DNA of 64,000 bases from a virus (lineage: Duplodnaviria > Heunggongvirae > Uroviricota > Caudoviricetes). The notes under the pieces were generated by a model that was given only the letters and a program-made list of their open reading frames with translations, was not told the DNA's origin and ran no database searches. The translations under genes and the position numbers were made by a program. The stretch lies in IMG/VR virus record IMGVR_UViG_3300031555_002005; one strand, written 5' to 3'. Every line of letters starts with the position of its first letter. The first letter of the stretch is position 1. Below, one piece after another: positions 1 through 31,544 of this stretch.

Positions 1-193
1 ATATTGAAGATTTCTTTGTTAATTTTGATGACTGTAATGGAAATGATCATGGAATTGGTTGGTGCGCCGACAATGTAAATAGCTCACAGTACAAAGTTAA
101 TATCCTTGACTTGTCTTTTGTAAATGTAGAAACCTATGATGAATATCCAGTATCAAAGGATACAATTAATAGATATAATCATGGGGTGATACA

Positions 194-400
194 ATGAGTA
201 AAAAATTTGTATTTGAAATTGAAGCATATGATGGCAATACAATGATGGCTTTTGAAGTCACAGTCAACGGAGACGAGCTTGAAGTAACCAAGACAATGGA
301 TTGTAGTCATGCAGATACAGACGCAGATTATATCTTTGATACAGAAGCAGACCTATATAGAATTCAATCAGACATATTGAGAATGGAGGGGTCTAATTAA
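194..400 (+). CDS. hypothetical protein (68 aa)
   Basis: ORF with upstream GGGGTG RBS; acidic small protein. Confidence 0.5.
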   Translation: MSKKFVFEIEAYDGNTMMAFEVTVNGDELEVTKTMDCSHADTDADYIFDTEADLYRIQSDILRMEGSN

Positions 401-561
401 TGAGAAAAATAACAGAAAAGGAATATAAGAAAATAAAGTCTTTAGAAAATGGTTTCTATAGAGGTGTTGAGAAATATTGCGAAGAACTGGAAGACACATG
501 GGATTTTGAGTATTACTTTCAAAAAATTATTGCGATTATTGATAGCGCAAGGAGGGAGTAA
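400..561 (+). CDS. hypothetical small protein (53 aa)
   Basis: ATG overlaps stop of the upstream ORF (TAATG); below the 60-aa track cut-off; weak RBS. Confidence 0.3.
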   Translation: MRKITEKEYKKIKSLENGFYRGVEKYCEELEDTWDFEYYFQKIIAIIDSARRE

Positions 562-563
562 GT

Positions 564-953
564 ATGGGAGCATGTTATAGTGTAAAAGTAAAAGTAAATG
601 TGCTTGATATGCCGGGAGCAATTAAGGCATTAAATGAGCATATTGTTAATGATACAAGTGCTGATTATTCTTTAGACGAGTATGCAGAACAAGGAATCAC
701 AACTGAAACATTTGATGGCTTGATGATGATTCTGTTGGCAAATCTTCAACAGGGAATTTTTGTTTACCAGGAAGGCAAGTTTACTATTTATGAAAGTGAC
801 TTTAATGCTTCTTATGGATGGGAGCGTATAATGATGGAGTGGTTTGAAGTGCTTGCGCCATTCCTTGCAAATGGTTCTCAGATGTTAATTTATCCTGATG
901 AAGATTATGATAAACTCGTAATTAGAAACGGGAAATGTGTGCAAATTCATTAG
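564..953 (+). CDS. hypothetical protein (129 aa)
   Basis: ORF preceded by AAGGAGGGAG RBS. Confidence 0.6.
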   Translation: MGACYSVKVKVNVLDMPGAIKALNEHIVNDTSADYSLDEYAEQGITTETFDGLMMILLANLQQGIFVYQEGKFTIYESDFNASYGWERIMMEWFEVLAPFLANGSQMLIYPDEDYDKLVIRNGKCVQIH

Positions 954-968
954 TTTGGAGGTATATGT

Positions 969-1178
969 ATGAAATACGTAGTTGTTGTAACAGAAAAACT
1001 TGAAAGAGGATATATTGTAGAAGCAGACAATCCAAAAGAAGCAGAAAAGAAAGTGTCGGAAGTATATAATAACCAGGAAATTACTCTTGATTATAGCGAC
1101 TATAATGGCTATGAGATTTCATGTGATAGAGAGGCAAGTGAATGTGACCTTGACCTTTATGACGATTTAGAAGATTAA
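969..1178 (+). CDS. hypothetical acidic protein (69 aa)
   Basis: ORF preceded by GGAGG RBS. Confidence 0.5.
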   Translation: MKYVVVVTEKLERGYIVEADNPKEAEKKVSEVYNNQEITLDYSDYNGYEISCDREASECDLDLYDDLED

Positions 1179-1207
1179 ACAATACAAAATTAACGGGAGG
1201 TGTAAAC

Positions 1208-2467
1208 ATGGATATTCTATTGAAGAAGTTCTTTGAAAAAGAACGATGGGAACAGGCACTTGAAACTGGTGTAGATAAGCACATTGACAAGGGAGAATTG
1301 AGAAAGCTTACATCTCCCGAAGTTAGACTTGCTTTGTATAGTGCAATTGTTAACGACAACTATGAGATTGCCCCGCCACATCAAGTACAGATTCCCAAAG
1401 ATAACGGAGACATGAGAATTGTATATGTCAATGAAAATGTTGACCGTATCTTCTTGTCTATTGTGAACAATCTTTTCTTTGAAATGTTCCCTGAGTTTGT
1501 GCATAAAAGCTGTAAGTCATATCAGTCTGGTATTGGCTGTGGCAAGATTGTACAGGAAGTTTCAAGAGAGATGGTTAAGGTAAACAGCAAGATTGTTGGC
1601 TTTAAGGCAGATTTAACTAAATACTTTGATACTGTTCCTATTAAGTACATAGATGAAATCTTTGACAGAATGGAAAGCAAAGTTGGTAAGTCCAAAATCA
1701 TTGATGTTGTGCGCAAGTATTATCATGCTGATTTATGCTTTGACTACAACGGAGAGCTTATTGAACATTATCAGTCTTTAAAGCAAGGTTGTGCAGTAGC
1801 AAGCTTCTTGGCTGATGCAGTGCTCTATCCAATCGATAAGGAAATCAGTGACATGGATGTTTACTATGTAAGATATTCTGATGATTTGCTTGTAGTTGGT
1901 AGGTGTTACGATGAAGCTTTTCAGATTTTAAAGGCAATGCTGAAAGAGATGGACATGACTTTGAATCCCAAGAAAGTAGAAACTGTTTGCAAAGACAGAT
2001 GGGTTAAATTCCTTGGTTTTAATATCAAAGGAAGCCAGATTACGCTTTCCAAGCAGCGTGTTAAGTCTTTCCAAAAGGAGATTGAAGCACGAACTATTAA
2101 GCAGCGCAAAACTTCTATGGAAAGAGCCATCAACCAAGTGAATAACTATCTCTATAAAGGAGATGGAACTTATTCTTGGGCGACATCTGTGTTACCTATT
2201 ATCAATGTAGAAAAAGACATTGATTCTTTGAATGAATTTGTCATGGATGCAATCAGAGCGTGTGCTACTGGTAAGAAAAAGATTGGAGGTCTGGGAAGTG
2301 TAAACAGCAAAGAAGACTATACAATTCTGCGTGGCACTGGCAAGAATGTGAGCGCAAACAGAGACAAGACTGAAAAGGAAATTGACGGTTTCCTAAGCTT
2401 AAGGTGCATGAGAAACGCTATTCTTACAAACCGAAGTGTATATGAGACTTTGGTAAGAAGTATGTAA
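1208..2467 (+). CDS. reverse transcriptase (retron/Abi/UG-DRT-like or DGR-like; class unresolved)
   Basis: RT motifs 1-7 read in the translation: IPKDNGDMRIV, SYQSGIGCGK, FKADLTKYFDTVP, QGCAVASFLADAVL, YVRYSDDLLVVG, LNPKKVE, FLGF. GGGAGG RBS. About 170-aa C-terminal extension. Confidence 0.85.
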   Translation: MDILLKKFFEKERWEQALETGVDKHIDKGELRKLTSPEVRLALYSAIVNDNYEIAPPHQVQIPKDNGDMRIVYVNENVDRIFLSIVNNLFFEMFPEFVHKSCKSYQSGIGCGKIVQEVSREMVKVNSKIVGFKADLTKYFDTVPIKYIDEIFDRMESKVGKSKIIDVVRKYYHADLCFDYNGELIEHYQSLKQGCAVASFLADAVLYPIDKEISDMDVYYVRYSDDLLVVGRCYDEAFQILKAMLKEMDMTLNPKKVETVCKDRWVKFLGFNIKGSQITLSKQRVKSFQKEIEARTIKQRKTSMERAINQVNNYLYKGDGTYSWATSVLPIINVEKDIDSLNEFVMDAIRACATGKKKIGGLGSVNSKEDYTILRGTGKNVSANRDKTEKEIDGFLSLRCMRNAILTNRSVYETLVRSM

Positions 2468-3018
2468 TCAAAGTTGTAATGCAGCAATAAATTGCAAGGC
2501 AACCGAATTCAACTATCTTCCGTCCACCGGCATATCAGAGGAGATACCCAGCTCGCTGTCGCTCCGCTGGAGTATCGCCTCGATCATGCAGGCGAACAGA
2601 AGCTAATATGAAGCAAATAAAGAAATGCATCGTGGTTGTGAGCAATTTAATTGGCAGTGCGGCCATAGATTGCAAGGTAATTAAATTCAATGACGCAGCA
2701 TACAATTCAGAAATTATGATCTTACTTGCGTGCTATCTCACGCCATAAGATCATAATCTTCTGGCCAATGCTGCATATATGAAGCTATTAAAGTAACGCA
2801 CCAATATTATGAGCAATCTACATTTGGAGTATACCAAAAGAAATGCAAGGCAGTTAAATTCAATACCCTGCAATTGATAAGCCCTAATATGAGGCTCCTT
2901 CAGGGTATCCCCTGAAGCTGCCTCATCTGATGGCTTCCAATCTCAGGGTTACATGAAACATCTAAAGTTATATACCGAAACTGTTGAGCATCTTATATTT
3001 TATAAAGGAGGTAAATCA
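2468..3018 (+). ncRNA. highly structured non-coding region downstream of the RT (candidate RT-associated ncRNA)
   Basis: No ORF. Three copies of TGCAAGG-N-TAAATTCAA (about 2493, 2670, 2844). Two ATATGAAGC-N-TAAAG boxes (2606, 2776). Perfect 12-bp hairpin 2713-2757. Nested hairpin 2888-2930. Confidence 0.45.
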
Positions 3019-3480
3019 ATGACTATCTATGAAGAGCTGATTAAGCGAGTTGAAGAGGGTGAGTCATTTTATATTAACTTTAAGAATCAGGCGCTCAAAA
3101 TTGGCAAGGAATTTATTGTTGCTGATGGTTTTTATGACGATGAACGCATTCTTTATACAACTTCTGAATTGGAAATGTCTGAGATTTTGGCATATATTGA
3201 AACGCTGTATGAAAACTACAAGTACTCTTTACCAAGCGAAAGAAGCGACAGTAGGCGCAGACAGTATTTTAAGGCACTGCCAGTGGACAAGCTTACTGAT
3301 AAGCAAATGGCAACTGGGCAAAGACGTGAGGTTGCAAGAGCGAGGCTTGAAGGTTTCATTCTTTGCATGATTGTTGATGGCTTCTTTGTATGGAACGAAG
3401 AAGAAATGGGCAAGTGGTTTTACCAGTCTAATAGAAATCCTGATTTAGTAATTCTGAGAAACTGGATTGAAAATAATTAA
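3019..3480 (+). CDS. hypothetical protein
   Basis: ATG at 3019 with AAAGGAGG RBS 7 nt upstream; the track ORF starts earlier at 2953 without an RBS. Confidence 0.55.
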   Translation: MTIYEELIKRVEEGESFYINFKNQALKIGKEFIVADGFYDDERILYTTSELEMSEILAYIETLYENYKYSLPSERSDSRRRQYFKALPVDKLTDKQMATGQRREVARARLEGFILCMIVDGFFVWNEEEMGKWFYQSNRNPDLVILRNWIENN

Positions 3481-3500
3481 TAGAAAAGGAGAATGATATT

Positions 3501-4424
3501 ATGATGCACAAAGAAAGAATGGAAAAGTTAAATAAGGCAGGTATAAACACTAGTAAGTATTTCACTGTTGATCTCGACAATGGAACTAAGATTCACCTTA
3601 TCATTGACGAGAATGGACAGCCTGTGGTTGTTAACAACAAGAACGATGAAATTGCTGAGCAGATTATTGCTGATGGCTATGTAAGAAACACCAAGCTTCA
3701 TAGAAGATTCGTTATGGCTCAGATGTTCCATATGCTTAACTATGTATCCTATGATGGAAAAGAGTCTGGCTATAATGCATACCTGAAGAATTACTATGGC
3801 TATCACTATACTCTCACCATGATGCTTGAAGAGGTTAGAGTGCTTGCTAAGCTGGAGGGTAGAGACAAGGAAAGTTTTGATGAGAGAAGCCACTTCTTTA
3901 CCAAGAGGGTTGTCATTGCTGTGCTTGAGGACTATGTGGAAAAGTTGAAGAAATATGTGGACAACCTGCCTGACCGCAAGTGCAAGGGTGTTCCTTATAA
4001 GAGAATTAAGGGTCAGGATATCTTTAATGCAGACCTTGACAAGAAGCTGTATGTTCCTTTGAGAAATAAGCTCAACTATGTTCGCTTTGCATCCAATTAT
4101 ACTGAAATCTATAATGCAATGCAGAAGTTTATGAATGATATGATTAAGCTTCCTTATGACACTCCTAAGAGTAAGATTTGGATTGATGCTTACAAGGGAG
4201 AAGGTGCTTACTATACTCTTAAGAATCTGATTATGTTCCATGAATGCAAGATTCTTGCTCGCTATGTGTTTTATACTACTAGTGAAAGTATGGACATTCT
4301 TAAGCAGAAACTTGATGAATACAAGGGAGAAGGCTGGAGAATGTTTGCTCTCATGAAGAAGGTAATTGAGGATAACAATTTTAACTTCAATGACAGAATG
4401 AAAGAAATATATTCTGACAAGTAA
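3501..4424 (+). CDS. hypothetical protein (307 aa)
   Basis: AAAAGGAGA RBS; no recognisable motifs. Confidence 0.6.
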   Translation: MMHKERMEKLNKAGINTSKYFTVDLDNGTKIHLIIDENGQPVVVNNKNDEIAEQIIADGYVRNTKLHRRFVMAQMFHMLNYVSYDGKESGYNAYLKNYYGYHYTLTMMLEEVRVLAKLEGRDKESFDERSHFFTKRVVIAVLEDYVEKLKKYVDNLPDRKCKGVPYKRIKGQDIFNADLDKKLYVPLRNKLNYVRFASNYTEIYNAMQKFMNDMIKLPYDTPKSKIWIDAYKGEGAYYTLKNLIMFHECKILARYVFYTTSESMDILKQKLDEYKGEGWRMFALMKKVIEDNNFNFNDRMKEIYSDK

Positions 4425-4803
4425 ACAACTGTCAGCAGATAGATACTGTTTAATGCACAAGGTATTTGTACTTCAATTTACCGTCTATTGATAACATCTT
4501 ACCAGCCAATTGGCGGCATATCTGCCGCCAGTTTCGCTGGTAATATGTCACATATACGGTATATATGAAACAGTTAAAGTAATATCTACAGAAATACAGA
4601 GTGCATTTGGTATAAGCGCCAATATACACAAGGGAATTGGTTCAATATAACCTGCGTAGACACCTGGTTACAGGATCCTTTATTCTGGATATCTCCCGAA
4701 ACAGGATCCTTTACCAGGTTAACGCAGGTTAAATATGAGACAGTTAAAGGGAGCTTGCGCAATTCATGAGTGTATATAATTTTATAAAAATGGAGGTTAA
4801 AAT
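4425..4803 (+). ncRNA. structured intergenic region with repeated boxes
   Basis: Hairpin GGCGGCATATCTGCCGCC near 4509. ATATGA[AG]ACAGTTAAAG boxes at 4561 and 4731 flank a roughly 80-nt perfect long hairpin (4649-4730). Confidence 0.4.
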
Positions 4804-5073
4804 ATGAGCAAAATGGCTTTTATTGAAAAACCAGAAGTTCCTAATTACATAATGAAAGATTTACGCCAGCGCAGAGAACTTGATGAAAATGACACATCTC
4901 AAGATGAAGAGATACTTGGGCTCAGTGGATTTGAGTTCTTTGATGAGTGGTTAAAGTGGAATGGGTTCCTTGGTTACACAAGAGATTTCATTGATGTAAT
5001 CTATTTTGCTTATGGAATTGATTTGACTGAATATCCGTTTTATGAAGAGATTGAAAGAAGCTTGATGGAATAA
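4804..5073 (+). CDS. hypothetical protein (89 aa)
   Basis: AATGGAGG RBS. Confidence 0.6.
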   Translation: MSKMAFIEKPEVPNYIMKDLRQRRELDENDTSQDEEILGLSGFEFFDEWLKWNGFLGYTRDFIDVIYFAYGIDLTEYPFYEEIERSLME

Positions 5074-5098
5074 AATATAAGATTTGGAGGTAATACAT

Positions 5099-5776
5099 AT
5101 GAAACAAGAAAAAGACTTTACAATGAGCAGACAGGAATACATAGATTTTCTTGCAAACAAAAGCAATGAAATCAATATGGGAAATAAGAACAGCAAGACT
5201 GGCGCAGCTTGTTTGAATCTTGCATTTCCTGTGGCTGTATGTCGTGAAGATGCACCTTGTAAGGCAACTTGCTATGCATGTAAAGGATGTCAGACTATGG
5301 CAAATGTGCAGGCAGCTTACTACAGAAATCTGAGACTGTATCATGATGATCCTGATAATTTCTTTGAACAGGTTTACTGCAAGGTAAAGTTCTCTGGACT
5401 ACCCAAAGTGAGACTGTTTGATAGTGGCGATTTTCCTGATGCAGACTTCTTGGTAAGGCTTGTGGATCTGTGTAAGAAAACTCCTGACACTAAGTATATG
5501 GCATTTACTAAGAAGTATGAGATTGTTAATGATTACATTGACAAGAATGGAGAGCTGCCTGAAAACCTTAACATTATATTCTCTGCATGGGACAAGCTTT
5601 GGGAAGTACCTAATCCTCATGGACTTGGTATGGCCTATGTGGATTTTAATGATAAGAGGTTGAATGCTGAATGGCCTAAAAACGCATTTATATGCCCCGG
5701 CAGAGCATCTACTTGTTCCGCTTGTGGCGCTTGCTGGTCTAAGAGACTTAAGGCAGTTGTGTTTCATCAGCACTAA
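5099..5776 (+). CDS. Cys-rich protein, possible Fe-S/radical-SAM-like phage protein
   Basis: TGGAGG RBS before the ATG at 5099; multiple CxxC/CxxxC clusters. Confidence 0.5.
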   Translation: MKQEKDFTMSRQEYIDFLANKSNEINMGNKNSKTGAACLNLAFPVAVCREDAPCKATCYACKGCQTMANVQAAYYRNLRLYHDDPDNFFEQVYCKVKFSGLPKVRLFDSGDFPDADFLVRLVDLCKKTPDTKYMAFTKKYEIVNDYIDKNGELPENLNIIFSAWDKLWEVPNPHGLGMAYVDFNDKRLNAEWPKNAFICPGRASTCSACGACWSKRLKAVVFHQH

Positions 5777-5857
5777 CAATACAAAATTAATGTAAATGTT
5801 TAAGTAGACCGTATCATTTCTTTTATAGTATAATATGAAGGAAATGAGGTGTATGTA

Positions 5858-6043
5858 ATGGGAAATAAAATCATTGAACTAACAAAAGTTAATGATGACC
5901 ATACTTGTCTTATTTGTTGCAAAAATGACGCAACAATTAAAATGAAAATCAATCGACTGGTGCTTGACGATAGTGTTACAAGTTTTTCAATTTGTGATGA
6001 TTGTCTTGCAAAGATGCAAAAGGATATTGAGACCTGCGAGTAA
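5858..6043 (+). CDS. zinc-ribbon small protein
   Basis: GAGGTG RBS; CLICC...CDDC. Confidence 0.5.
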   Translation: MGNKIIELTKVNDDHTCLICCKNDATIKMKINRLVLDDSVTSFSICDDCLAKMQKDIETCE

Positions 6044-6075
6044 GTGGGTCTCTTATTTTGTGATTACAATACAAA
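6044..6075 (+). terminator. rho-independent terminator
   Basis: GAGACC-TGCGAGTAAGT-GGGTCTC stem followed by TTATTTTG. Confidence 0.6.
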
Positions 6076-6108
6076 ATTAATGAAATGACGATTTGGTGAG
6101 GTAATAAA

Positions 6109-6309
6109 ATGGAATATAGATATGTGACTTGTCCTAATTGTGGTTTGAGTGATGGTAATGATGATAAGATTTTGTCTAGCAAAGTTATCGACAAATCATA
6201 CAATGGTGGGGAACTCGTGATTCTTGAAGAAAGAAAGTGTGATATCTGCCAAAAGATATACAGAGTGGAGATGCACTATACGCTCAAATACGAAGAGTTG
6301 AGAGTATAA
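6109..6309 (+). CDS. zinc-ribbon small protein
   Basis: GGTGAGG RBS; CPNCG...CDIC. Confidence 0.55.
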   Translation: MEYRYVTCPNCGLSDGNDDKILSSKVIDKSYNGGELVILEERKCDICQKIYRVEMHYTLKYEELRV

Positions 6310-6340
6310 AAGAGTGAGTGATTTTAAGTGAGGCAAATAT

Positions 6341-6946
6341 ATGATTATTGAACAGAAACGTTATGAAATTGCAGATGTCTTTGGCCTTTTAGGAGAAGAA
6401 TATCTTTGTAGAAATAATGATGGCGGTCAGTCTGGAAGTGATATTGTTGTAGATGGATTTAATGTACATCCAATTTCTCTTCGATATATGACATTCTATC
6501 AGAAAGGTACAAAGTGTGTTTGTTGTGGAAAAGAAGGAACCCACTTCAAGCTTTGTGGCGATGAAAATACAAATCGAAGACATTTTAATCTGTATGCAGA
6601 AGATGGAACTCTAATGACAAAAGATCATATTTTGCCTAAGAGTAAGGGTGGTCTTAATAGAGTATCTAATATGCAAACAATGTGTACAGACTGTAATAGC
6701 GCAAAAGGCTCTCACTGCCCTGGCTATGAAAAAGAATATATTGTTGGCCGAAATGCAGAGGGAAAAGAAATTGCATTTTCCTCAATTGAAAAGGCAGTTT
6801 ATCACTTGGTAAACAATCATATGAAGAAAAAGAATACCAAAGAGGATTGGGCAAGAAAAGCTATTAATATTACTTTGCAATTACTCAATGTAATTGAAAC
6901 AGGAGAGTGTTATCAAAATAGAATTTGGACAAAGGAAATGAGATAA
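6341..6946 (+). CDS. HNH homing endonuclease
   Basis: DHILPKSKGG...N...CTDCNSAKG HNH motif. Confidence 0.75.
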   Translation: MIIEQKRYEIADVFGLLGEEYLCRNNDGGQSGSDIVVDGFNVHPISLRYMTFYQKGTKCVCCGKEGTHFKLCGDENTNRRHFNLYAEDGTLMTKDHILPKSKGGLNRVSNMQTMCTDCNSAKGSHCPGYEKEYIVGRNAEGKEIAFSSIEKAVYHLVNNHMKKKNTKEDWARKAINITLQLLNVIETGECYQNRIWTKEMR

Positions 6947-6966
6947 ATATAAATGGAGGGATATTA

Positions 6967-7266
6967 ATGAGTAAAATTTCTCTTGAAAATGAATTTAACA
7001 TAAAGGAACTAAATCGTCTAAAGGAATTGGGATATCCAGAGTGTTGTACAACCCCATTAACTGCTGATGAAATTAAAAATTTAAAAATTGGCGCAGTTTG
7101 TTATGTCGCCACGCTGCAGTCCACATTCAAGCTCATGATGTTTACTGGCTATCTACAGAATGTAGATGAATTTAGTTTTTGCTGCTATCAGGGTACATAT
7201 TGGTATAAGGCAAGAAATGTTGCAAAAACATATAATGTATTTAATGCAAATATGAAGGAGGATTAA
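6967..7266 (+). CDS. hypothetical protein
   Basis: AATGGAGGGA RBS before the ATG at 6967. Confidence 0.5.
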   Translation: MSKISLENEFNIKELNRLKELGYPECCTTPLTADEIKNLKIGAVCYVATLQSTFKLMMFTGYLQNVDEFSFCCYQGTYWYKARNVAKTYNVFNANMKED

Positions 7267-7268
7267 CT

Positions 7269-7502
7269 ATGAAAGCTTTTACTATTAATGAAATGGAAAA
7301 TATTTTCGAGATTGGTCGTGCTATGCAGTGCGCAGCCGATGAAGGAGAAATTGAAATTGAAGATAGCAAGAATGCATTTCTTTTTGCAGCAAAACTTGCA
7401 ATGGAGTTTGAAGAAAAATATCCTGATTCTGAGGATTATTACTATGATCTGGATGAGTTCATTACAGAGAAAATTGTAAAGGAATTCAACAAAGGCAATT
7501 AA
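7269..7502 (+). CDS. hypothetical acidic protein
   Basis: AAGGAGG RBS. Confidence 0.6.
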   Translation: MKAFTINEMENIFEIGRAMQCAADEGEIEIEDSKNAFLFAAKLAMEFEEKYPDSEDYYYDLDEFITEKIVKEFNKGN

Positions 7503-22697: not shown

Positions 22698-22774
22698 GGT
22701 TCCGTGGCTCAGTGGTCTAGAGCAGCGGGCTCATAATCCGTCAGACTTCGGTTCGAATCCGAACGGAACCACCA
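22698..22774 (+). tRNA. tRNA-Met/Ile2 (anticodon CAU), CCA encoded
   Basis: Cloverleaf folded by hand: acceptor GGTTCCG/CGGAACC, T-loop TTCGAAT. Confidence 0.75.
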
Positions 22775-22777
22775 AAT

Positions 22778-22854
22778 GCTCTAGTAGCTCAGTTGGTTAG
22801 AGTATTCGCCTGATAAGCGAAAGGTCGGCTGTTCAAGTCAGCCCTAGAGCACCA
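22778..22854 (+). tRNA. tRNA-Ile (GAU), CCA encoded
   Basis: Acceptor GCTCTAG/CTAGAGC; anticodon loop CTGATAA. Confidence 0.8.
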
Positions 22855-22857
22855 AAT

Positions 22858-22983
22858 GACGGTGTAGCTCAGTTGGAAGAGCAATAGCCTTTGTCAGATG
22901 CAGGCTTGCACTAATTCAGTTCGATTCTGAAGTTTGGCACCATAAGCTATGGGTCGAGAGTTCGAGCCTCTCCACCGTCACCA
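22858..22983 (+). tRNA. interrupted tRNA. A 57-nt anticodon loop (about 50 extra nt) contains a tRNA-like minihelix ending in CCA. Would be tRNA-Lys (UUU) if the insert is excised.
   Basis: Acceptor GACGGTG/CACCGTC; D-arm; anticodon stem ATAGC/GCTAT separated by 57 nt; T-arm GAGAG-TTCGAGC-CTCTC; CCA encoded. Confidence 0.55.
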
Positions 22984-23009
22984 AAAGAAATGGAGTTTAT
23001 TATGTATCA

Positions 23010-23265
23010 TTCTTATTCTTGGAAGAAACATCATGATTGGGTTAAAGCGATAAGGAAAAGAAAAGTTGCAAAAGACATTTTCCCTTTTTATGACGAATGC
23101 CCCGAATTACATAAGCTCCATCATTATTCTAAAAATAAATTTCATTGTGTTTGGACTTATTCTCCGAAAACAAAGCAGAATGGAATTTATAACTACAAAG
23201 TAAGTGACATGCGAAAAATCCAAAGATTATTTGATTCTAAAAAAGAATATGATATGGTCCCTTAG
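23010..23265 (+). CDS. hypothetical protein inside the tRNA array
   Basis: AAATGGAG RBS; stop overlaps the start of tRNA-Asn. Confidence 0.4.
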
Positions 23266-23331
23266 CTCAGTTGGCAGAGCAATAGGCTGTTAACCTATGT
23301 GTCGCTGGTTCGAGCCCAGCAGGGATCGCCA
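23256..23331 (+). tRNA. tRNA-Asn (GUU), CCA encoded
   Basis: Anticodon loop CTGTTAA; good cloverleaf. Confidence 0.8.
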
Positions 23332-23450
23332 AGCCTAGTTAGTTATCTGCGCAGATACGGCACATCCCATGGTTAAGGCGGCTGACCTTATAAAAGCCAC
23401 CCTGGTACGGTGATAATGCTTGCTAACGGCAAAACAACCGTACAACATAT

Positions 23451-23604
23451 ATCCCAGTAGCTCAGCTGGATAGAGCAACGGTCTTCGGGGAGTTCGTTAA
23501 AAGGTAAGATACTTTAGGATAAAACCTAAGGAGATTACAGTTCGAGTCTGTTGCTCCCCACCATAAACCGTAGGTCGGGGGTTCGAGTCCCTCCTGGGAT
23601 ACCA
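23451..23604 (+). tRNA. interrupted tRNA. An 87-nt anticodon loop (23483-23569) contains a nested tRNA-like element (23487-23563). Would be tRNA-Arg (UCU) if the element is excised.
   Basis: Acceptor ATCCCAG/CTGGGAT; D-arm GCTC..GAGC; anticodon stem ACGGT/ACCGT separated by 87 nt; T-arm GGGGG-TTCGAGT-CCCTC; CCA encoded. Confidence 0.55.
23487..23563 (+). ncRNA. nested tRNA-like element inside the anticodon loop (acceptor GGGGAGT/GCTCCCC, anticodon arm TTAGG-ATAAAAC-CCTAA, T-arm, CCA)
   Basis: Folded by hand; ends ACCA; flanked by CTTC and TAA, which would join into a 7-nt loop CTTCTAA. Confidence 0.4.
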
Positions 23605-23610
23605 AAATAT

Positions 23611-23745
23611 CGGGAACAGGTGGAATGGTATACACATCGGAACCATAACTGAGTTTTGATAAAAACTTGCCAACAGCAAATACGTGGACGTAAAATCCGA
23701 CGCTTTTGCAAGCATCCTTGGTTCGAATCCAAGGGTTCCCGACCA
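23611..23745 (+). tRNA. class-II-like tRNA with an extra stretch of about 47 nt (a 54-nt segment between the anticodon-stem strands)
   Basis: Acceptor CGGGAAC/GTTCCCG; anticodon stem TCGGA/TCCGA separated by 54 nt; long variable hairpin; T-arm CCTTGG-TTCGAAT-CCAAGG; CCA encoded. Confidence 0.4.
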
Positions 23746-23748
23746 AAT

Positions 23749-23823
23749 GGTCCCGTCGTCTAGTGGCTAGGACTCAGGATTTTCATTCCTGCAACAGGGT
23801 TTCGAATACCCTCGGGATCACCA
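23749..23823 (+). tRNA. tRNA-Glu (UUC), CCA encoded
   Basis: Anticodon loop TTTTCAT; T-arm AGGGT-TTCGAAT-ACCCT. Confidence 0.8.
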
Positions 23824-23896
23824 ATAAAGTAATTCTTGTCAAACGATACACAAAAGATGCTAAAGAATTACCTAATTTTAAAAGTTAGGTGATAGC

Positions 23897-24541
23897 ATGG
23901 AACAGAAGAAAAAAGATTATTCCAAGTATAGAAAAAAGTATTGGAGAGAACAAATAAAACATAGAGGTGTTCAATTTCTAGGTGGTGTGTGTCGTAATTG
24001 CGGAGGCGCTTTTGAAGATTGTTGCTATGATTTTCATCATTTAAATCCAAAAGAAAAAGACTTCACGATTGGAAATGTACAAACTAACGGAGCAAAAAGT
24101 TGGTTTAAAGTACGTGACGAATTAAAGAAGTGTGTACTATTATGTGCGAACTGTCATCGTCTTGCTCATGCAGGACTAATTGAAACAGATCTTCAGTTAT
24201 ATTTTAATGATGAATACTATGAATGGGATTTGACAAAATTTAAACTAATTGATTCATCAACTGGTTTGCCCAAGGATGCAAATATTACATGTCCTATATG
24301 CGGACAATACAAATCTCCAAATGCAAATAAATGTTCAGAGTGTGCAATGAAAGAGCAAATAAGATTTGAAGTCTCACGAGAAGAATTAAAAGAAATGATA
24401 TACACTATGGCATTTACTGATATTGGTAAAAAATATGGGGTTTCTGATAATTCTATTAGAAAAAGATGTGAAAAATTTGGATTACCATCTTACAAGAAAG
24501 ATATTCTAAAATACTCACCAGAAGAGTGGGCATCTATTTAG
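23897..24541 (+). CDS. HNH homing endonuclease
   Basis: HHLNPKEKD...CANCHRLAH. Confidence 0.75.
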   Translation: MEQKKKDYSKYRKKYWREQIKHRGVQFLGGVCRNCGGAFEDCCYDFHHLNPKEKDFTIGNVQTNGAKSWFKVRDELKKCVLLCANCHRLAHAGLIETDLQLYFNDEYYEWDLTKFKLIDSSTGLPKDANITCPICGQYKSPNANKCSECAMKEQIRFEVSREELKEMIYTMAFTDIGKKYGVSDNSIRKRCEKFGLPSYKKDILKYSPEEWASI

Positions 24542-24611
24542 ATATTATTCTATAAAACATAGACAATAAGTTTTAAGAATGTATATTCTGTTTTAAAGTT
24601 GTCATTTATAC

Positions 24612-24687
24612 GGTGGTGTAGCATAGTGGCTAATGCGCTGGACTGTCTCTCCAGTTACCGTGGGTTCGAGTCCCATCACCATCGCCA
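24612..24687 (+). tRNA. tRNA-Asp (GUC), CCA encoded
   Basis: Anticodon loop CTGTCTC. Confidence 0.75.
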
Positions 24688-24690
24688 TAT

Positions 24691-24775
24691 CGGTGAGTCG
24701 CCTAGTTGGTTAGGGCAGCAGACTGTAAATCTGCCGGTTTTACCATCGTTGGTTCAAATCCAACCTCACCGACCA
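24691..24775 (+). tRNA. tRNA-Tyr (GUA), CCA encoded
   Basis: Anticodon loop CTGTAAA; long variable arm. Confidence 0.8.
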
Positions 24776-24917
24776 GTCCTCTTGATGCAGCGAGAGTAAG
24801 ATAATTTCAGCCGATGACAAGGCTATACATTGGTACTGCATTACCGATTCACGACGTAAATACGGATATAACAACGTATTTGAAGGACAGTGCCAACTAC
24901 TGGTTAGTTGGAGATCT

Positions 24918-24992
24918 GCGGTAGTAGCTCAATGGTAGAGTTCCAGATTTCCAATCTGGCTGTTGCGAGTTCGAGTCTCGTCTACCGCTCCA
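24918..24992 (+). tRNA. tRNA-Gly (UCC), CCA encoded
   Basis: Acceptor GCGGTAG/CTACCGC; anticodon loop TTTCCAA. Confidence 0.8.
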
Positions 24993-25214
24993 TGCTATAT
25001 GGAGTATGCAACTTTAATTAAATGAATTTAGTAATAAAGACTTCGGGCCTTGATGCGTACGACAGGGCTTTATGTAAAGGTGGATTAATAAGCTTAGAAG
25101 TACAAAAAGCTAAATGAGTTTAATTCATTGGGGGTTGTGCATAGCTCCGCTTCATATAGCAACCACCTGAACAAATGACATAGTGTTATGTGTGGCTGAC
25201 CAACCTTAAGGTCA

Positions 25215-25700
25215 ATGAATATTGAACAAGTAATTCTTTATAAAAGAATCGAAAAAGTACTTAAGAATTACCTAATAAATGACTTGGGTGATTCACAAAT
25301 GAAGAAAAAGGAAAGCTATTGTTTGAATTGTGGAGTTTCTATACCAAATAGAAATAAATATTGCTCAAACAAATGCCAACTAGATTTCCAATATAAAGAG
25401 TATATACAGAGATGGAAAAATGGGCTTGAAGATGGTATGAGAGGTGAATATCTTATATCAGTACACATTAGAAAATATTTAATGGAAAAGTTTGATAACA
25501 AATGCTCAAAATGTGGATGGGGAGAAATAAATCCTTATACCAAAAATGTACCACTAGAAGTCCATCATAAAGATGGAGATTATACCAATAATTCAGAAGA
25601 CAATCTTGACTTACTATGTCCAAATTGTCACTCATTAACAGAAACATATAAAGCTGCAAATAAAGGCAATGGAAGAAAAGATCGTAAAAAATACACATAA
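25215..25700 (+). CDS. HNH homing endonuclease
   Basis: EVHHKDGD...NLDLLCPNCH. Confidence 0.7.
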   Translation: MNIEQVILYKRIEKVLKNYLINDLGDSQMKKKESYCLNCGVSIPNRNKYCSNKCQLDFQYKEYIQRWKNGLEDGMRGEYLISVHIRKYLMEKFDNKCSKCGWGEINPYTKNVPLEVHHKDGDYTNNSEDNLDLLCPNCHSLTETYKAANKGNGRKDRKKYT

Positions 25701-25703
25701 TAT

Positions 25704-25777
25704 GCCCCGATAGTTCAACGGTAAAACGGTGGATTTGTAATCCTCTGTTCTCGGTTCAAGTCCGGGTCGGGGCTCCA
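25704..25777 (+). tRNA. tRNA-Thr (UGU), CCA encoded
   Basis: Acceptor GCCCCGA/TCGGGGC; anticodon loop TTTGTAA. Confidence 0.65.
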
Positions 25778-25914
25778 TATTAAAAGCACAAGTGGATAAG
25801 TACTTTATAGTCAACTGACTAGTCATGTCACGAAAGGTAAGACGAGTTTGCACAAAAATGGCCATGGACATTTAGTGATGAATCCGCAAATCTACGAAAC
25901 GGAGGATATTGCCT

Positions 25915-25962
25915 ATGATTGTTTGTAGTGAATCCAGTGTGGGGGACACCCCACCCGCTTAG
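25915..25962 (+). CDS. conserved 15-codon mini-ORF (MIVCSESSVGDTPPA), copy A
   Basis: GGAGGA RBS; homologous copy at 30959; followed by hairpin 25971-25998 and then the next gene. Confidence 0.4.
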   Translation: MIVCSESSVGDTPPA

Positions 25963-26017
25963 TAGTGGGTTTCGCCGTTCCCACCAAAAACGGCGAACTT
26001 AATTAAGAGGTAATAAA

Positions 26018-26200
26018 ATGTGTAAACACCAAAACGGAAGTATATCAAGTATGTTTGGCATTCCAGTAGATCCTTGTGTGTACAAGGATATTGAAGCATA
26101 CAAGAATGTAACAGTAATTGTTAGCAAATGTATTCACTGTGGTGCTATTAATATCAGTTGGAAGCGTCAGGAAGATACTGAAGAAATTGAAGTTGAGTAA
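26018..26200 (+). CDS. Cys-containing small protein
   Basis: AGAGGTAA RBS. Confidence 0.5.
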   Translation: MCKHQNGSISSMFGIPVDPCVYKDIEAYKNVTVIVSKCIHCGAINISWKRQEDTEEIEVE

Positions 26201-26208
26201 TTAAATAT

Positions 26209-26299
26209 GGGGAATTGGCCGAGTGGTCGAAGGCAGCTGACTTGAAATCAGTAGACGGTGCTGAGCCGTCCGTGGGTTCGAATCCTACATTCCCCGCCA
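26209..26299 (+). tRNA. tRNA-Ser (UGA), CCA encoded
   Basis: Class II; anticodon loop CTTGAAA. Confidence 0.75.
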
Positions 26300-26344
26300 C
26301 AAAATGGGCTTACGGCTTCACCCAACCAAAGAAGCCGACGATAT

Positions 26345-26436
26345 GGAGCAGTACCCAAGTGGCTATAAGGGGACGCCCTGCTAAGGCGTTAGACCGAGCA
26401 ATCGGTGCGAGAGTTCGAATCTCTCCTGCTCCGCCA
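26345..26436 (+). tRNA. tRNA-Ser (GCU), CCA encoded
   Basis: Class II; anticodon loop CTGCTAA. Confidence 0.75.
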
Positions 26437-27064
26437 TGCACTCAAGGGCACTACAGATGTTACCGATATTAGAAAACTCATATCGCCCTCGTAAATACTA
26501 AGAATGGTGCGAAGTATTTACACAAATCTCACGCAACACTACTTATTGCAGTAAGTTGATTGAATAAAGGTGTTGCTTATATAGGGGAGTCGTTCAAAGG
26601 AAGGACTGTAGTCTCCAAAACTACCAATGGGATATCGTGATTCTCCTCCCCTGCCAAGTAAGTGATACTTAAATACTGCAGAATAAAGGATTTGCCTTCC
26701 AGGGAACTGTGCCTGCATAGATCCCGTTTACTGGTGTTGATGCCAAAGTACACGGTGCAGTAGCCAGCTGATAAAGCCAACAACAAAGATTGGCCGCTTG
26801 TTTCGTGCGGCATATAAAAGTGAAACTCGCTAGTCACAGTGTGAACCTGAAAAAGATGCTTCGTCAAAAGCTTAAAATGGCATCGCTCTTCAATAATTGG
26901 CGGTTGTTGGAAATCTAAAGAAAGGAAATTATGTATCATGTGGAAGACTTTTAAAAAGAGACTTTTTGATGCTATTGTTGAATACGGTAAGTTTGTTCAG
27001 TTTATGTATTCCTAATAGCGTTATTAAGTGGATCATTGAGCCTAAAAAGCTTAATGATTCCCTC

Positions 27065-27093
27065 TTGACAAATCTTAAAACATGTGATATAAT
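27065..27093 (+). promoter_or_regulatory. sigma-A-type promoter
   Basis: TTGACA-N17-TATAAT, followed by the conserved element and tRNAs. Confidence 0.55.
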
Positions 27094-27128
27094 TCCTTCA
27101 GTTCAAAGGAACAATACAAAATTAATAT

Positions 27129-27216
27129 TGGGGATTCGCCTAGAGGCTAAGGGCGGCGGGCTTTGACCCCGTTTGGAGAAATCCTATCGTGTGTTCGAAT
27201 CACACATCCCCAACCA
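27129..27216 (+). tRNA. tRNA (anticodon UUG, Gln-like) with an atypically long variable arm
   Basis: Acceptor TGGGGAT/ATCCCCA; anticodon loop CTTTGAC; T-arm GTGTG-TTCGAAT-CACAC. Confidence 0.5.
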
Positions 27217-27219
27217 TAT

Positions 27220-27296
27220 AGAGCCGTAGCCAAGCGGTTAAGGCATCAGACTCTGACTCTGACATTTCATTGGTTCAAATCCAATCGGCTCTACCA
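27220..27296 (+). tRNA. tRNA-Gln (CUG), CCA encoded
   Basis: Acceptor AGAGCCG/CGGCTCT; anticodon loop CTCTGAC. Confidence 0.7.
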
Positions 27297-27322
27297 TTAT
27301 TTATTTGACATTAAAGAAGTGA

Positions 27323-27922
27323 TTGACATTGGCGAAACATGTAACTACAGAAGAAATAGCAACAAGAATAAAAAATACTTTTAAACAAAATGTTTCATTA
27401 GTTGGAGAATATAAGAATAAACGATCAAAATTAACATTACATTGTAATGATTGTGGACATGAATGGGAATCTCCATCAAGTAGTGTTATATATGGAGATA
27501 GACACGAGTGTCCTCGGTGTGGAAGACATGCAAAACAATTGAATGAATTTCAATGTACAAACTGTGGACAAGTTGTGTATCGTAAAGATTCAGACATTAA
27601 AAAGAATCAAACAGGTAATTTCTTTTGTTCTCAACAATGTGGAAATGAGTTTAAAAATCGAATACGAAAAGAAAGTGGAGAATGGGATAACTCGTTAAGC
27701 TATAGACGGAAAGCATTTGAAACTTATGAACATTTATGTTGTGTATGCGGTTGGAATGAAGATGAAAGAATTTTAGAAGTTCATCATAAAGATGAAGATC
27801 GTACAAACAATATGGTAAATAATCTATGTATTCTATGTCCTACATGTCATAGAAAAATAACATTAGGATATTATGAATTAACAGATGATTTCAAGCTAGT
27901 TGATAAAAATCAAAAGAATTAA
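27323..27922 (+). CDS. HNH homing endonuclease (start uncertain)
   Basis: EVHHKDEDRTNN...CPTCHRK; N-terminal CxxC pairs. Confidence 0.65.
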   Translation: MTLAKHVTTEEIATRIKNTFKQNVSLVGEYKNKRSKLTLHCNDCGHEWESPSSSVIYGDRHECPRCGRHAKQLNEFQCTNCGQVVYRKDSDIKKNQTGNFFCSQQCGNEFKNRIRKESGEWDNSLSYRRKAFETYEHLCCVCGWNEDERILEVHHKDEDRTNNMVNNLCILCPTCHRKITLGYYELTDDFKLVDKNQKN

Positions 27923-27925
27923 TAT

Positions 27926-28003
27926 CCGGTAGTGGCCAAATTTGGTAAGGCTCTTGATTTGGGTTCAAGAAATTTGCACGTTCGAGTCGTGTCTACCGGA
28001 CCA
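27926..28003 (+). tRNA. tRNA-Pro (UGG), CCA encoded
   Basis: Acceptor CCGGTAG/CTACCGG; anticodon loop TTTGGGT. Confidence 0.75.
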
Positions 28004-28028
28004 CAAAAAATAACAAAAGGAGATTTTT

Positions 28029-28202
28029 ATGCTAGAATTTGGAACAACTGTAACCGATACCAACACTGGATATTCAGGTAAGATCACCGCACGTGCAGAG
28101 TATAATATTGGTACAATTTTGTATCTGGTCGAAAGCGTTGATACAACTGGTAGACCGATTGAACAGTGGATTAACTCTGAAAGAATTGAAGTAGAAATTT
28201 AA
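28029..28202 (+). CDS. hypothetical small protein (57 aa)
   Basis: AAGGAGA RBS. Confidence 0.5.
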   Translation: MLEFGTTVTDTNTGYSGKITARAEYNIGTILYLVESVDTTGRPIEQWINSERIEVEI

Positions 28203-28212
28203 AAAATACCCC

Positions 28213-28240
28213 TTGACAAATCAGAATTATATGATATAAT
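28213..28240 (+). promoter_or_regulatory. sigma-A-type promoter for the tRNA-like cluster
   Basis: TTGACA-N16-TATAAT, then the conserved element. Confidence 0.5.
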
Positions 28241-28269
28241 ACAAGCAGTTCAAGGGAACAGTACAAAAT

Positions 28270-28560
28270 TAATAAAGGCGCACACAGCAAATTTACTATA
28301 TGGTTAAAATTTTTTATGTTTGTGTTAAAAAATGAGAAGGTTCAAATCCTTTAAAAATTTCATGCGCCTTGACAAAAAAAGACACTAACAGCAACTTTAT
28401 TAACTATACAATTTGGGCTTGTAAATATTGTTAATAGTGTCTTGAATATGGGAACGTCCGGTGGCAGTAAATAAGTGCATGGAGTGGGCAGCACACACAG
28501 CAATTTTACTTAACAATTTCTGGAAAAAATTGACTCCTTGGTTCAACTCCGAGGGTTCCC
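28270..28560 (+). ncRNA. three hairpin-enclosed RNA units, each carrying a CACANACAGCAA(A)TTT motif
   Basis: 8-bp closing stems AAGGCGCA/TGCGCCTT, AAGACACT/AGTGTCTT, AGTGGG/CCCACT. T-arm-like GGTTCAAATCC inside unit 1. Confidence 0.35.
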
Positions 28561-28582
28561 AAAAATCCCACTAACTTAATAT

Positions 28583-28712
28583 GCGGAAGTAGCTCAGCTG
28601 GGAGAGCAATAGTATTTATTTAAAAATGTGTTTAGATTAACACTAACAGCAATTTTTATTTAAAGAAGAAGTTGGGGACTATGGGTCGTAGGTTCGAGCC
28701 CTACCTTCCGCA
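28583..28712 (+). tRNA. interrupted tRNA: 64-nt anticodon loop carrying the ACAGCAATTTTTA motif
   Basis: Acceptor GCGGAAG/CTTCCGC; D-arm GCTC-AGCTGGGA-GAGC; anticodon stem ATAGT/ACTAT separated by 64 nt; T-arm GTAGG-TTCGAGC-CCTAC. Confidence 0.5.
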
Positions 28713-28724
28713 TCAACTAAATAT

Positions 28725-28852
28725 GCCAGAGTAGCTCAGTTGGTAGAGCACGTATATATCAACCAACGTGGTATGAAAATTTCACGCACAGCAATTTTAA
28801 TGATTCTTGCCTTTTAAGCACGTTGTCGTGGGTTCGAGTCCCATCTCTGGCA
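28725..28852 (+). tRNA. interrupted tRNA: about 55 extra nt between the D- and T-arms carrying the ACAGCAATTTTA motif
   Basis: Acceptor GCCAGAG/CTCTGGC; D-arm GCTC-AGTTGGTA-GAGC; T-arm GTGGG-TTCGAGT-CCCAT. Confidence 0.45.
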
Positions 28853-28862
28853 AACTTTATAT

Positions 28863-28981
28863 GGCGCAATGGTGTAATGGTAGCACAACGTAATAATTGA
28901 GGTTTGTTAAAATCTTAAACTGCAATTTTACAATGCATGATCACGCCGTAGGTTGAAGTTCGATTCTTCATTGCGTCTCCA
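28863..28981 (+). tRNA. interrupted tRNA-like: about 45 extra nt carrying a CTGCAATTTTA motif; CCA encoded
   Basis: Acceptor GGCGCAA/TTGCGTC; D-arm GTGT-AATGGTA-GCAC; T-arm TGAAG-TTCGATT-CTTCA. Confidence 0.4.
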
Positions 28982-28997
28982 AATTAACAATTAAATA

Positions 28998-29118
28998 AAG
29001 GCACATACAGCAATTTTAAATTCTGAAGCAGCCATTTTGCTTTGTAGTATAACTGGTTAGTACGCAGGACTGATAATCCTGAAATGCTGGTTCGAGTCCA
29101 GTCTTTAAAAATGTGCCT
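28998..29118 (+). ncRNA. 9-bp-stem-enclosed unit: the motif plus a tRNA-like 3' three-quarter (anticodon arm CAGGA-CTGATAA-TCCTG, T-arm)
   Basis: Outer stem AAGGCACAT/ATGTGCCTT; no canonical acceptor pairing found. Confidence 0.35.
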
Positions 29119-29353
29119 TGCAATTAAAAGAGAGACGAACAGCAAATTGATTGAATTAAAGAAGATAGAAAACTTATTTACTAATTATTGTTGTTTTATT
29201 TATGTATTAGATTATTTATCACTTTTAAGTCTCTCGAATAAATAAAATCTCCAAAGACGCTAACAGCAATGTACGACTTGACTGCAAATCAATAATCGTA
29301 AAATGCGTCTTGGATTTTAGTAATAAAATCAAAACTTTTAGGAGGAACAAAAA

Positions 29354-30907: not shown

Positions 30908-30958
30908 ACTGGTACACGCAAGTGTCTTGTTTAAATAATCCAAAGGAGGACTTTGCCT

Positions 30959-31006
30959 ATGATTGTATCAGCTAATTCCAACTTGGAGGATTGTCCACCA
31001 GCTTAG
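30959..31006 (+). CDS. conserved 15-codon mini-ORF (MIVSANSNLEDCPPA), copy B
   Basis: GGAGGA RBS; about 75-nt conserved element shared with 25893-25975. Confidence 0.4.
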   Translation: MIVSANSNLEDCPPA

Positions 31007-31073
31007 GTGGAGTCCTGGGTAAGACTTAAAACTGCCCATTCAGACATTAACAGCAAACAATAATTACTTGGTT

Positions 31074-31148
31074 GCGAGGTTAGCTTAGCTGGTCTAAAGC
31101 AATAGATGTGAAAATCTATGATCACTGGTTCGAACCCAGTACCTTGTG
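31074..31148 (+). tRNA. tRNA-like with a non-canonical (6- or 8-nt) anticodon loop; identity undetermined; no CCA
   Basis: Acceptor GCGAGGT/ACCTTGT with G-U pairs; D-arm GCTT..AAGC; ATAGA-TGTGAAAA-TCTAT; T-arm ACTGG-TTCGAAC-CCAGT. Confidence 0.4.
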
Positions 31149-31176
31149 TTTAAGTGATAATGTCTAGTTTCTATAT

Positions 31177-31254: not shown

Positions 31255-31257
31255 TAT

Positions 31258-31344: not shown

Positions 31345-31379
31345 TAAAAAATATTGGCACTTTGAAAGGAGAAATTAAA

Positions 31380-31538: not shown

Positions 31539-31544
31539 AAACAA

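Follow-up and report, generated by a model that had tools for sequence, protein, structure and literature searches.

Among the few groups of reverse transcriptases (RTs) that are carried mainly by phages is UG27, a class 2 UG/Abi RT (Mestre et al., 2022, Nucleic Acids Research; PMC9226505). It is common in predicted phages of Bacteroidetes and Firmicutes from the human gut, and the full system, found in 1,447 dereplicated viral genomes of gut phages, links the RT to two protein clusters without a known domain (337/336 and 346) and to a "putative conserved ncRNA ... with three long stem-loops" located between the RT and the next gene (ncRNA, non-coding RNA). UG27 is not enriched in defense islands, host CRISPR spacers against its intergenic region have been reported, and a role in addiction or anti-defense was suggested as a proposal (PMC9226505). 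Here we describe a locus of this type in a 64,000-nt stretch of DNA from a virus of the Caudoviricetes (IMG/VR record IMGVR_UViG_3300031555_002005), hereafter the window. The locus, which starts with an RT gene at 1208-2467 on the plus strand, is almost certainly the UG27-type RT module of a large phage. Its ncRNA is built of tandem units in two arrays, each unit with a covarying, pseudoknotted scaffold around a variable hairpin that is more stable when read on the complementary strand, a polarity that would fit a hairpin copied into DNA.

The likeness to the published UG27 systems consists of a full-length match of the RT to the profile of the group, an ncRNA with long stem-loops after the RT, two domain-less proteins, a large phage as the carrier and no link to defense islands; it rests on the description given in the paper. 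The difference lies in the ncRNA, which was published as three stem-loops and is found here as tandem units (1-6 in number) with a second array beyond two genes. The locus belongs to a published system and its kind is therefore already known. The original prediction, a note made from the letters of the window alone, had thought the layout possibly novel and matched by no system known to its author, a view superseded by the UG27 RT with downstream ncRNA and two proteins that was published in 2022 (PMC9226505). What is added here is the anatomy of the unit with its pseudoknot, the second array, the fixed order of the unit types and the polarity signature. Some of these additions were probably anticipated by a preprint on UG27 of 24 September 2026 (10.64898/2026.09.22.753630). 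That preprint contains the terms UG27 (74 times), hairpin (33), cDNA (complementary DNA, 24), pseudoknot (12), cDNA product (12), ncRNA array (10) and cDNA hairpin (2), and does not contain tandem-repeat, template region, protein-primed or msDNA (multicopy single-stranded DNA) at all; these word counts are weak evidence, but they hint that the array, and perhaps also what is made from it, was described there.

The RT gene encodes a protein of 419 aa with an intact YSDD box. That this is a genuine RT, as originally proposed, is borne out by a match to Pfam RVT_1 (E 9.4e-22) and by the motifs QGCAVAS (residue 193), YSDD (residue 223) and FLGF (residue 268). The protein was also correctly said to have no maturase or endonuclease domain, but the part beyond FLGF, first estimated at some 170 aa, measures about 150 aa. 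The class of the RT, which had been left unresolved, emerged from a search with RT-class profiles: the PADLOC profile RT_UG27 matches with an E value of 2.6e-206 and 683.5 bits, residues 2-419 lying on positions 3-420 of the 420 in the profile. The runners-up were UG26 (130 bits), UG17/DRT10 (88.3 bits) and Drt9 (85.7 bits), the last two scoring 7-8 times lower than UG27, and the best of the PADLOC retron models reached only E 1e-10. The NCBIfam models for group II intron RTs (TIGR04416, 112 bits), retron_St85_RT (48.9 bits) and Drt2 (38 bits) scored below their cut-offs of 300, 235 and 390, respectively, and Drt3a and Drt4 were likewise far under theirs. The nearest solved structures by sequence were RTs of the group II intron type, with GsI-IIC RT first and DRT9 at E 1.5e-6; we read the matches to group II-type RTs as mirroring only the shared RT core.

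Membership in other RT systems was considered and rejected. Retrons, diversity-generating retroelements (DGRs) and group II introns were excluded because the cut-offs were missed, no Rfam family was matched and no pair of template and variable repeats (TR/VR) was found, so that the doubts raised about all three in the original prediction were well founded. An Rfam scan of the stretch that follows the RT yielded chance-level matches only (E at least 1.5), and over the whole window tRNAs alone reached the gathering score. A search of the window for a DGR-type repeat pair found none, and the repeats that did turn up were paralogous genes and motifs of the promoter or leader type. In retrons the msr-msd ncRNA adjoins the RT, usually on its upstream side, and has a1/a2 repeats and a branching G from which 2'-5'-linked msDNA arises, whereas the ncRNA here is downstream of the RT and arrayed. 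Of the defense-associated RTs (DRTs), DRT9, DRT10 and DRT2 were set aside on their scores, Drt9 and UG17 being far under UG27 and Drt2 under its curated cut-off, and DRT10 also because no SLATT effector lies beside the RT and the adjoining proteins are without a Pfam domain.

Downstream of the RT gene, a self-alignment of 2466-2995 gave three tandem units of about 175 nt each, and an iterated nhmmer profile identified five units, each of them on the plus strand of the window, with three in array 1 (2468-2990) and two in array 2 (4431-4771). Unit 1 (type B, 2468-2644, E 1.1e-28) carries its variable hairpin at 2514-2605 and unit 2 (type A, 2646-2815) at 2692-2776, with the apical loop CUAUCU. 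The hairpin of unit 3 (type E, 2818-2990) lies at 2865-2950 and has the apical loop UAUC; the closing helix of this unit ends about 2 nt beyond 2990, at 2992. The first unit of array 2, unit 4 (type C, 4431-4601, E 3.5e-11), and the second, unit 5 (type D, 4601-4771, E 9.3e-14), have their hairpins at 4478-4562 and 4647-4732, both with the loop UAUC. A profile search of the window found no units outside the RT module.

The three-unit tandem organization, the long hairpin of unit 1 and the second array had all been overlooked in the original prediction, the separate elements of which can now be placed within the units. Three copies of a 5' box had been listed, and the core CAAGGNA-N6-TTCAA is indeed exact at 2495, 2673 and 2846, but the longer consensus is slightly degenerate in copy 1, which reads CGAATTCAA, and in copy 3, which begins ATGCAAGG. 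The hairpin at 2713-2757 with its perfect 12-bp stem (2713-2724/2746-2757) is present as described and is part of the hairpin of unit 2. The hairpin at 2888-2930 also exists, but only as the core of a longer imperfect hairpin with arms at 2879-2905 and 2910-2936. Two 3' boxes of the form ATATGAAGC...TAAAG were found at 2606 and 2777 as stated, but a third, degenerate copy at 2951 had escaped notice. The boxes exceed chance, because ATGARRCNNNTAAAG occurs in five exact copies in the window, all on the plus strand and all within units, against 0.08 expected. The region had also been called free of open reading frames (ORFs): no real gene lies in 2468-3018, but there is a spurious ORF of 46 aa (2608-2748) and an upstream in-frame ATG at 2953. 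The homologs of the gene after array 1 align from 3019.

We compared 29 related loci from IMG/VR, with RT identities of 50-92% (tblastn), on contigs of up to about 170 kb. The unit profile gave 145 matches over 28 of these 29 loci and the window, every one of them on the plus strand, and the units adjoin the RT in 28 of the 29. In the relatives, the first unit begins at the RT stop codon or a few bases before it, and some 190 to 1,090 nt separate the stop codon from the next gene. This distance grows by one unit length at a time and corresponds to 1-6 detected units. The gene order is conserved as RT, array 1, a 153-aa protein, a 307-aa protein and array 2 (0, 2 or 3 units), and the genes outside the module differ between relatives. 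Unit types, defined by clustering of the scaffolds, recur in a fixed order: array 1 has a variable first unit followed by types B and A and ends with E (or G-H), array 2 always has C and then D, and the series in the window is B A E ... C D.

The most divergent relatives, with RTs that are 54-56% identical, are partly or wholly without unit matches (L021 and L023, 5254-5750; L025, 5266-6537), and in L025 an ORF of 408 aa follows the RT in their place. The units of these three loci may be too diverged for detection, or the layout may be different. Another relative is the cultured Bacteroides phage BS-TP1 (L030; PQ571274), in which gp79 (4849-6111), annotated as "tail protein," is a homolog of the UG27 RT. 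The 1.35 kb after gp79 (6112-7460) are without an annotated gene and hold at least six divergent ncRNA units, which carry an AUCGA...UAAAG variant of the 3' box. As a cultured phage that bears both a UG27 RT and an array, BS-TP1, together with its host Bacteroides salyersiae BG8, is usable as an experimental system.

The structure of the scaffold was derived from an alignment of 97 distinct units, the same alignment that was used for counting the pairs. RNAalifold on the MAFFT alignment of these units predicted no pairs because the hairpins were misaligned, and it gave way to the counting of column pairs combined with per-sequence folds. Near the 5' end, a mini-hairpin is formed by columns 8-11 with 18-22, and its loop pairs with the 3' box to make a pseudoknot (columns 13-17 with 256-260; for example GUGCA/UGCAC, GUAUA/UAUAC and UAGAUA/UAUCUA). 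A closing helix of 5 bp (columns 31-33 with 273-275, together with two covarying pairs that reach two bases past the unit) is followed by an internal loop, AAGG/UGA, and a second helix (columns 38-41 and 45 with 264-268). A near-invariant helix, UUCA/UGAA (columns 50-56 with 236-242), clamps the base of the variable hairpin, and between this helix and the pseudoknot lies a single-stranded stretch of 13 nt, AC-NNN-UAAAG-NNA. The residues C244, U248, A249, A251, G252 and A255 vary little or not at all among the 97 units. A reading of the internal loop as a K-turn was dropped because a Watson-Crick pair occupies the second tandem position.

Standard pairs occupy 86.5% of the scaffold cells, a share that falls to 30-44% once the 3' partners are shifted by 1-3 columns. 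Two-sided changes were counted in 509 cells, whereas these shifted controls gave 63-136. For covariation the scaffold scores 0.534, the controls reach at most 0.147 and none of 500 shuffles attained the observed value. In the window, all helices of units 1-3 are Watson-Crick, and units 4 and 5 fit after a shift of one or two columns. The scaffold helices show the usual RNA pattern, with 123 G.U pairs and 75 A.C, many of the A.C stemming from mis-registered units of array 2, and purine-purine mismatches outnumber pyrimidine-pyrimidine ones. Judged by these patterns, the scaffold looks as if it has been selected as RNA of the plus strand. The structured and conserved non-coding region that was proposed at the outset is thus upheld by the 145 unit matches and by covariation in the related phages.

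Within the scaffold, columns 57-235 form a single hairpin in 96 of the 97 units according to minimum free energy (MFE) folds, with medians of 86 nt, 30 bp and -41 kcal/mol (z -8.1 relative to shuffles). The apex carries UAUC in 73 of the 97 units, and the G+C content is 48%, as compared to 33% in the scaffold. Units of the same type in different phages have scaffolds that are 74-80% identical, whereas their hairpins are 52-62% identical over a background of about 50%. About half of the hairpins have a recognizable counterpart in another phage. No likeness was found between the hairpins of one locus, and when the five hairpins were compared with the window by BLAST, nothing beyond chance 11-15-mers was returned. 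From the identities within types, the counterparts in other phages and the distinctness within a locus, we infer vertical inheritance of the hairpins, with drift within limits set by their shape. A spacer-like or targeting origin was rejected, since there are no matches in the window and the vertically inherited unit types argue against it. The resemblance to CRISPR arrays is one of form only, in the alternation of conserved and variable parts and in a number of units that differs among relatives. In contrast to CRISPR arrays, the variable parts are self-complementary, keep a fixed order, drift in a compensatory manner and have no matches in the window, and no Cas genes are present here.

The hairpins also have a marked polarity. 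Of their MFE pairs, G-U pairs make up 1.5% on the plus strand and 6.5% on the reverse complement, and the complement is the more stable form of 89 of the 97 hairpins with RNA parameters and of 86 with DNA parameters (Wilcoxon p ~3e-16). Isolated mismatches in the plus-strand hairpins comprise 142 U.C/C.U, 54 A.C and 22 G.U, which on the complement read as 142 G.A, 54 G.T and 22 A.C. Mismatches that contain a G are the best tolerated in duplexes. All five hairpins of the window are more stable as the complement, the values for unit 1 being -37.7 for the plus strand and -53.0 for the complement, and the same holds for the divergent array of BS-TP1 (-475.5 kcal/mol for the complement vs. -416.8 for the plus strand). 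This bias opposes that of the genome itself, because in random 86-nt segments of this genome the minus strand is the more stable in only 30%, and in the tRNAs of the window in 4 of 18. The plus strand of the window is rich in G and in purines, whereas the hairpins are rich in C. The apical UAUC becomes GAUA on the complement (GATA in DNA), a loop closed by G and A. These patterns suggest that selection on the hairpin acts in the complementary polarity, that of a reverse transcript, no less than in that of the RNA.

The best explanation overall, to which we give about an even chance of being correct, is that the locus is a UG27 module in which the RT copies the variable hairpins into DNA hairpins. 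The mRNA of the RT and both arrays would be co-transcribed, and the RT would bind the scaffold of each unit as a handle, by analogy with DRT2, DRT3, DRT9 and DRT10, grouped together in a 2026 preprint as class 2 UG RTs (UG3+UG8, DRT3, were placed in class 1 in 2022; PMC9226505). Such binding of the UG27 RT to each scaffold is the most likely arrangement when judged from these parallels. The RT would then reverse-transcribe the variable hairpin into one species of DNA hairpin per unit, five in this phage, and the products would resemble the msDNA of retrons. The 153-aa and 307-aa proteins would act with or on the DNA hairpins during infection. The polarity signature, the presence of a distinct hairpin in every unit and the word counts of the 2026 preprint favor the hairpin as the template over the UAAAG stretch, and the long template of DRT2 or of the retron msd offers a parallel. 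A fuller version, in which a fixed-order set of five or more RNA templates gives rise to matching DNA hairpins that are selected as the DNA product and not as the RNA and act together with both proteins, is a possibility against which we would lean slightly. The DNA hairpins may act, for instance, as decoys against host immunity, and the module as a whole may serve in counter-defense, in the exclusion of rival phages or in a task linked to replication.

Several considerations weigh against the copying of the hairpins. The cDNA, the binding of RNA by the RT and transcription are here predictions from sequence, the scaffold was derived from the very alignment on which its pairs were counted, and the hairpin statistics come from MFE folds with no structure-aware alignment. 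Moreover, in most of the characterized class 2 relatives the template is short and single-stranded and not a long hairpin, and the invariant UAAAG is a candidate for such a short template, which is left unexplained if the hairpin is the template. The conserved apical loop at a fixed stem length also fits a role in protein docking or as a ruler, and the polarity bias could have arisen because pyrimidine bulges in the RNA, or a weak template, were selected for, with the product being irrelevant.

The alternative that survives best, although we consider it unlikely, is a telomerase-like class 2 model in which the template is the single-stranded AC-NNN-UAAAG-NNA, and the hairpin and the pseudoknot are only anchoring stems. 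The product would be a short or tandem-repeat T-rich DNA, as in DRT9, DRT10 and DRT3, and the hairpin would be free to drift, with only its shape and the UAUC tip being of importance. This model accounts well for the six near-invariant residues, which are located exactly between two helices in the 97 units, and the retained length and loop of the hairpin would suit an anchor or a ruler. It also agrees with the presence of UG17/DRT10 and Drt9 among the closest characterized profiles, DRT9 and DRT10 being the parallel for a template at UAAAG. However, no consistent A-B-A' microhomology was found around UAAAG, where the flanking NNN positions vary, or at the base of the hairpin. The preprint, moreover, uses tandem-repeat and template region not once but cDNA hairpin twice. 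Nor does the model explain the greater stability of the hairpin in the complementary polarity, which is opposed to the bias of the genome, or the different hairpin in every unit of a locus.

DRT10 (UG17), DRT9 (UG28) and DRT2 (UG2) are of the same RT class, and each needs a structured ncRNA with stems that anchor the RT around the template. In DRT2 and DRT9 the ncRNA lies upstream of the RT, in DRT3 (UG3+UG8) it lies at the 3' end of the system, and no array is described for them. The DRT2, DRT3, DRT9 and DRT10 systems are bacterial and serve in defense, DRT10 with a SLATT effector, whereas the module in the window is phage-borne, has its ncRNA downstream of the RT in arrays of differing units and includes two extra proteins.

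We also considered the possibility that the units are RNAs in their own right and not templates, and that the RT binds them only as a cofactor or is functionally separate. The units could in that case be decoys or sponges for a host factor that binds RNA or senses double-stranded RNA, substrates for enzymes of the RNase III type, or cis-regulatory elements of the operon. Such functions would be in line with the selection on the scaffold, which is clearly that of a plus-strand RNA, with the location of array 2 at 2 kb from the RT, past two other genes, and with the host CRISPR spacers that target the UG27 intergenic region (PMC9226505). Yet the units are confined to the RT module in the window and adjoin the RT in nearly all of the related loci (28 of 29), and the catalytic YSDD of the RT is intact. 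A pure RNA function also predicts abundant G-U pairs in the hairpins, which is the opposite of what was observed, and we find the explanation improbable.

It is very unlikely that the hairpins are signals at the level of the DNA, for example terminators, parts of an origin or sites of single-strand initiation. The stability in the minus polarity, which is also seen with DNA parameters, speaks for such signals, but every hairpin sits in a covarying scaffold with plus-strand G-U pairs and a pseudoknot, and the tight coupling to the RT would be unexplained. No T-tracts were found after the unit hairpins, and terminator-like as well as promoter-like sequences occur at near-chance counts in 1-5300. 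Least credible of all is a disguised retron, DGR or group II intron, for which one could cite the weak similarity in the RT core (112 bits to the group II RT and 48.9 bits to retron St85), the position of GsI-IIC RT as the closest solved structure by sequence, and a unit size and long hairpin like those of retron ncRNAs, but which is contradicted by scores under the cut-offs of 300 and 235 next to 683 bits for UG27, by the lack of any Rfam intron or retron RNA and of a TR/VR pair in the 64 kb, by the motif B QGCAVAS, and by an ncRNA that is arrayed downstream of the RT.

The ncRNA units are similar in size to those of retrons, have a closing helix like them and likewise carry a long hairpin with a variable sequence, and the putative product would likewise be a DNA hairpin. 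The differences are that the RT belongs to another clade and scores below the retron cut-off, and that the ncRNA is located downstream, arrayed and pseudoknotted, with a conserved hairpin tip. A branching G is a feature of retrons, and there is no sign of one in these units.

If the RT does copy the hairpins, a phage RT that turns an RNA array into a whole set of DNA hairpins would represent a viral counterpart of the bacterial retrons and DRTs, and it would be a compact means of making several defined single-stranded DNAs in cells. The polarity signature would then be the first sequence-only evidence for DNA hairpin products of an array. The flagged locus is one of many in a described family.

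The two proteins of the module are both encoded on the plus strand. A153 (3019-3480) is an acidic protein of 153 aa with an isoelectric point (pI) of 4.9 and is conserved, with 976 homolog clusters. B307 (3501-4424), a basic and mostly helical protein of 307 aa (pI 9.0), lies between the arrays and is conserved as well, with 1,760 homolog clusters. Neither of them has a match in Pfam or PHROG, and their homolog clusters are likewise free of Pfam domains and functional names, the few names given being "hypothetical protein." A153 follows array 1 in all 26 relatives with sequence past the RT-proximal region, one of which (L025) is without detected units.

The module is bracketed by two copies of a leader motif, ACARTACAAAWT, at 1179-1190 and 5776-5787 on the plus strand, the first of them 18 nt upstream of the RT start. 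This 12-nt motif occurs in 21 copies in the window, all on the plus strand, against 0.1 expected, and looks like a leader or regulatory element specific to the phage. The bracketing copies hint that the module is one expression unit and that the stretch between them is co-transcribed as such. Examples of the 19 copies beyond the bracketing pair lie at 6066, 11376, 21709, 22202, 27111, 55966 and 62076. The motif is usually located 15-20 nt before a start codon, often right after a promoter-like pair, TTGACA...TATAAT (repeat families D1-D5).

Directly upstream of the RT lies a gene for a DpnD/PcfM-like protein of 69 aa (969-1178; Pfam E 2.1e-10), and in six related loci a homolog of it precedes the RT, not always at the same distance. 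Just past array 2 lies a GP88-family protein with several Cys pairs (5084-5776; Pfam E 4.7e-21), which is found again beyond the module in four of the related loci. The window also encodes an HNH endonuclease, at 6341-6946.

The window as a whole is a region of replication and nucleotide metabolism, with a DnaB-like helicase, a DNA polymerase, an NAD-dependent ligase, RecJ, an RNA ligase and about 21 tRNAs. This gene content, together with the IMG/VR contigs that carry the relatives, agrees with the phage origin first assigned to the module. Diverged direct repeats with 71-78% identity (12129-12409/17566-17843, 25555-25630/27774-27849 and 25898-25962/30942-31006) look like paralogous genes, possibly of the homing-endonuclease type, scattered in the replication and tRNA regions. 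The tRNA genes, about 21 and all on the plus strand, are clustered at 22698-34049. Some of the Rfam tRNA matches are unusually long (22858-22980, 23451-23601, 28583-28712 and 28725-28852), and ARAGORN reports "tRNA-???" with two-base anticodons at 23487-23563, 31073-31149 and 33958-34049; these odd tRNAs may be intron-bearing or otherwise unusual. A 517-aa protein of PHROG 850, "RNA-binding protein" (29354-30907; E 1e-141), is encoded within the cluster and an RNA ligase of PHROG 968 (40124-41509) downstream of it, and the two suggest a capacity for the repair of tRNA or other RNA.

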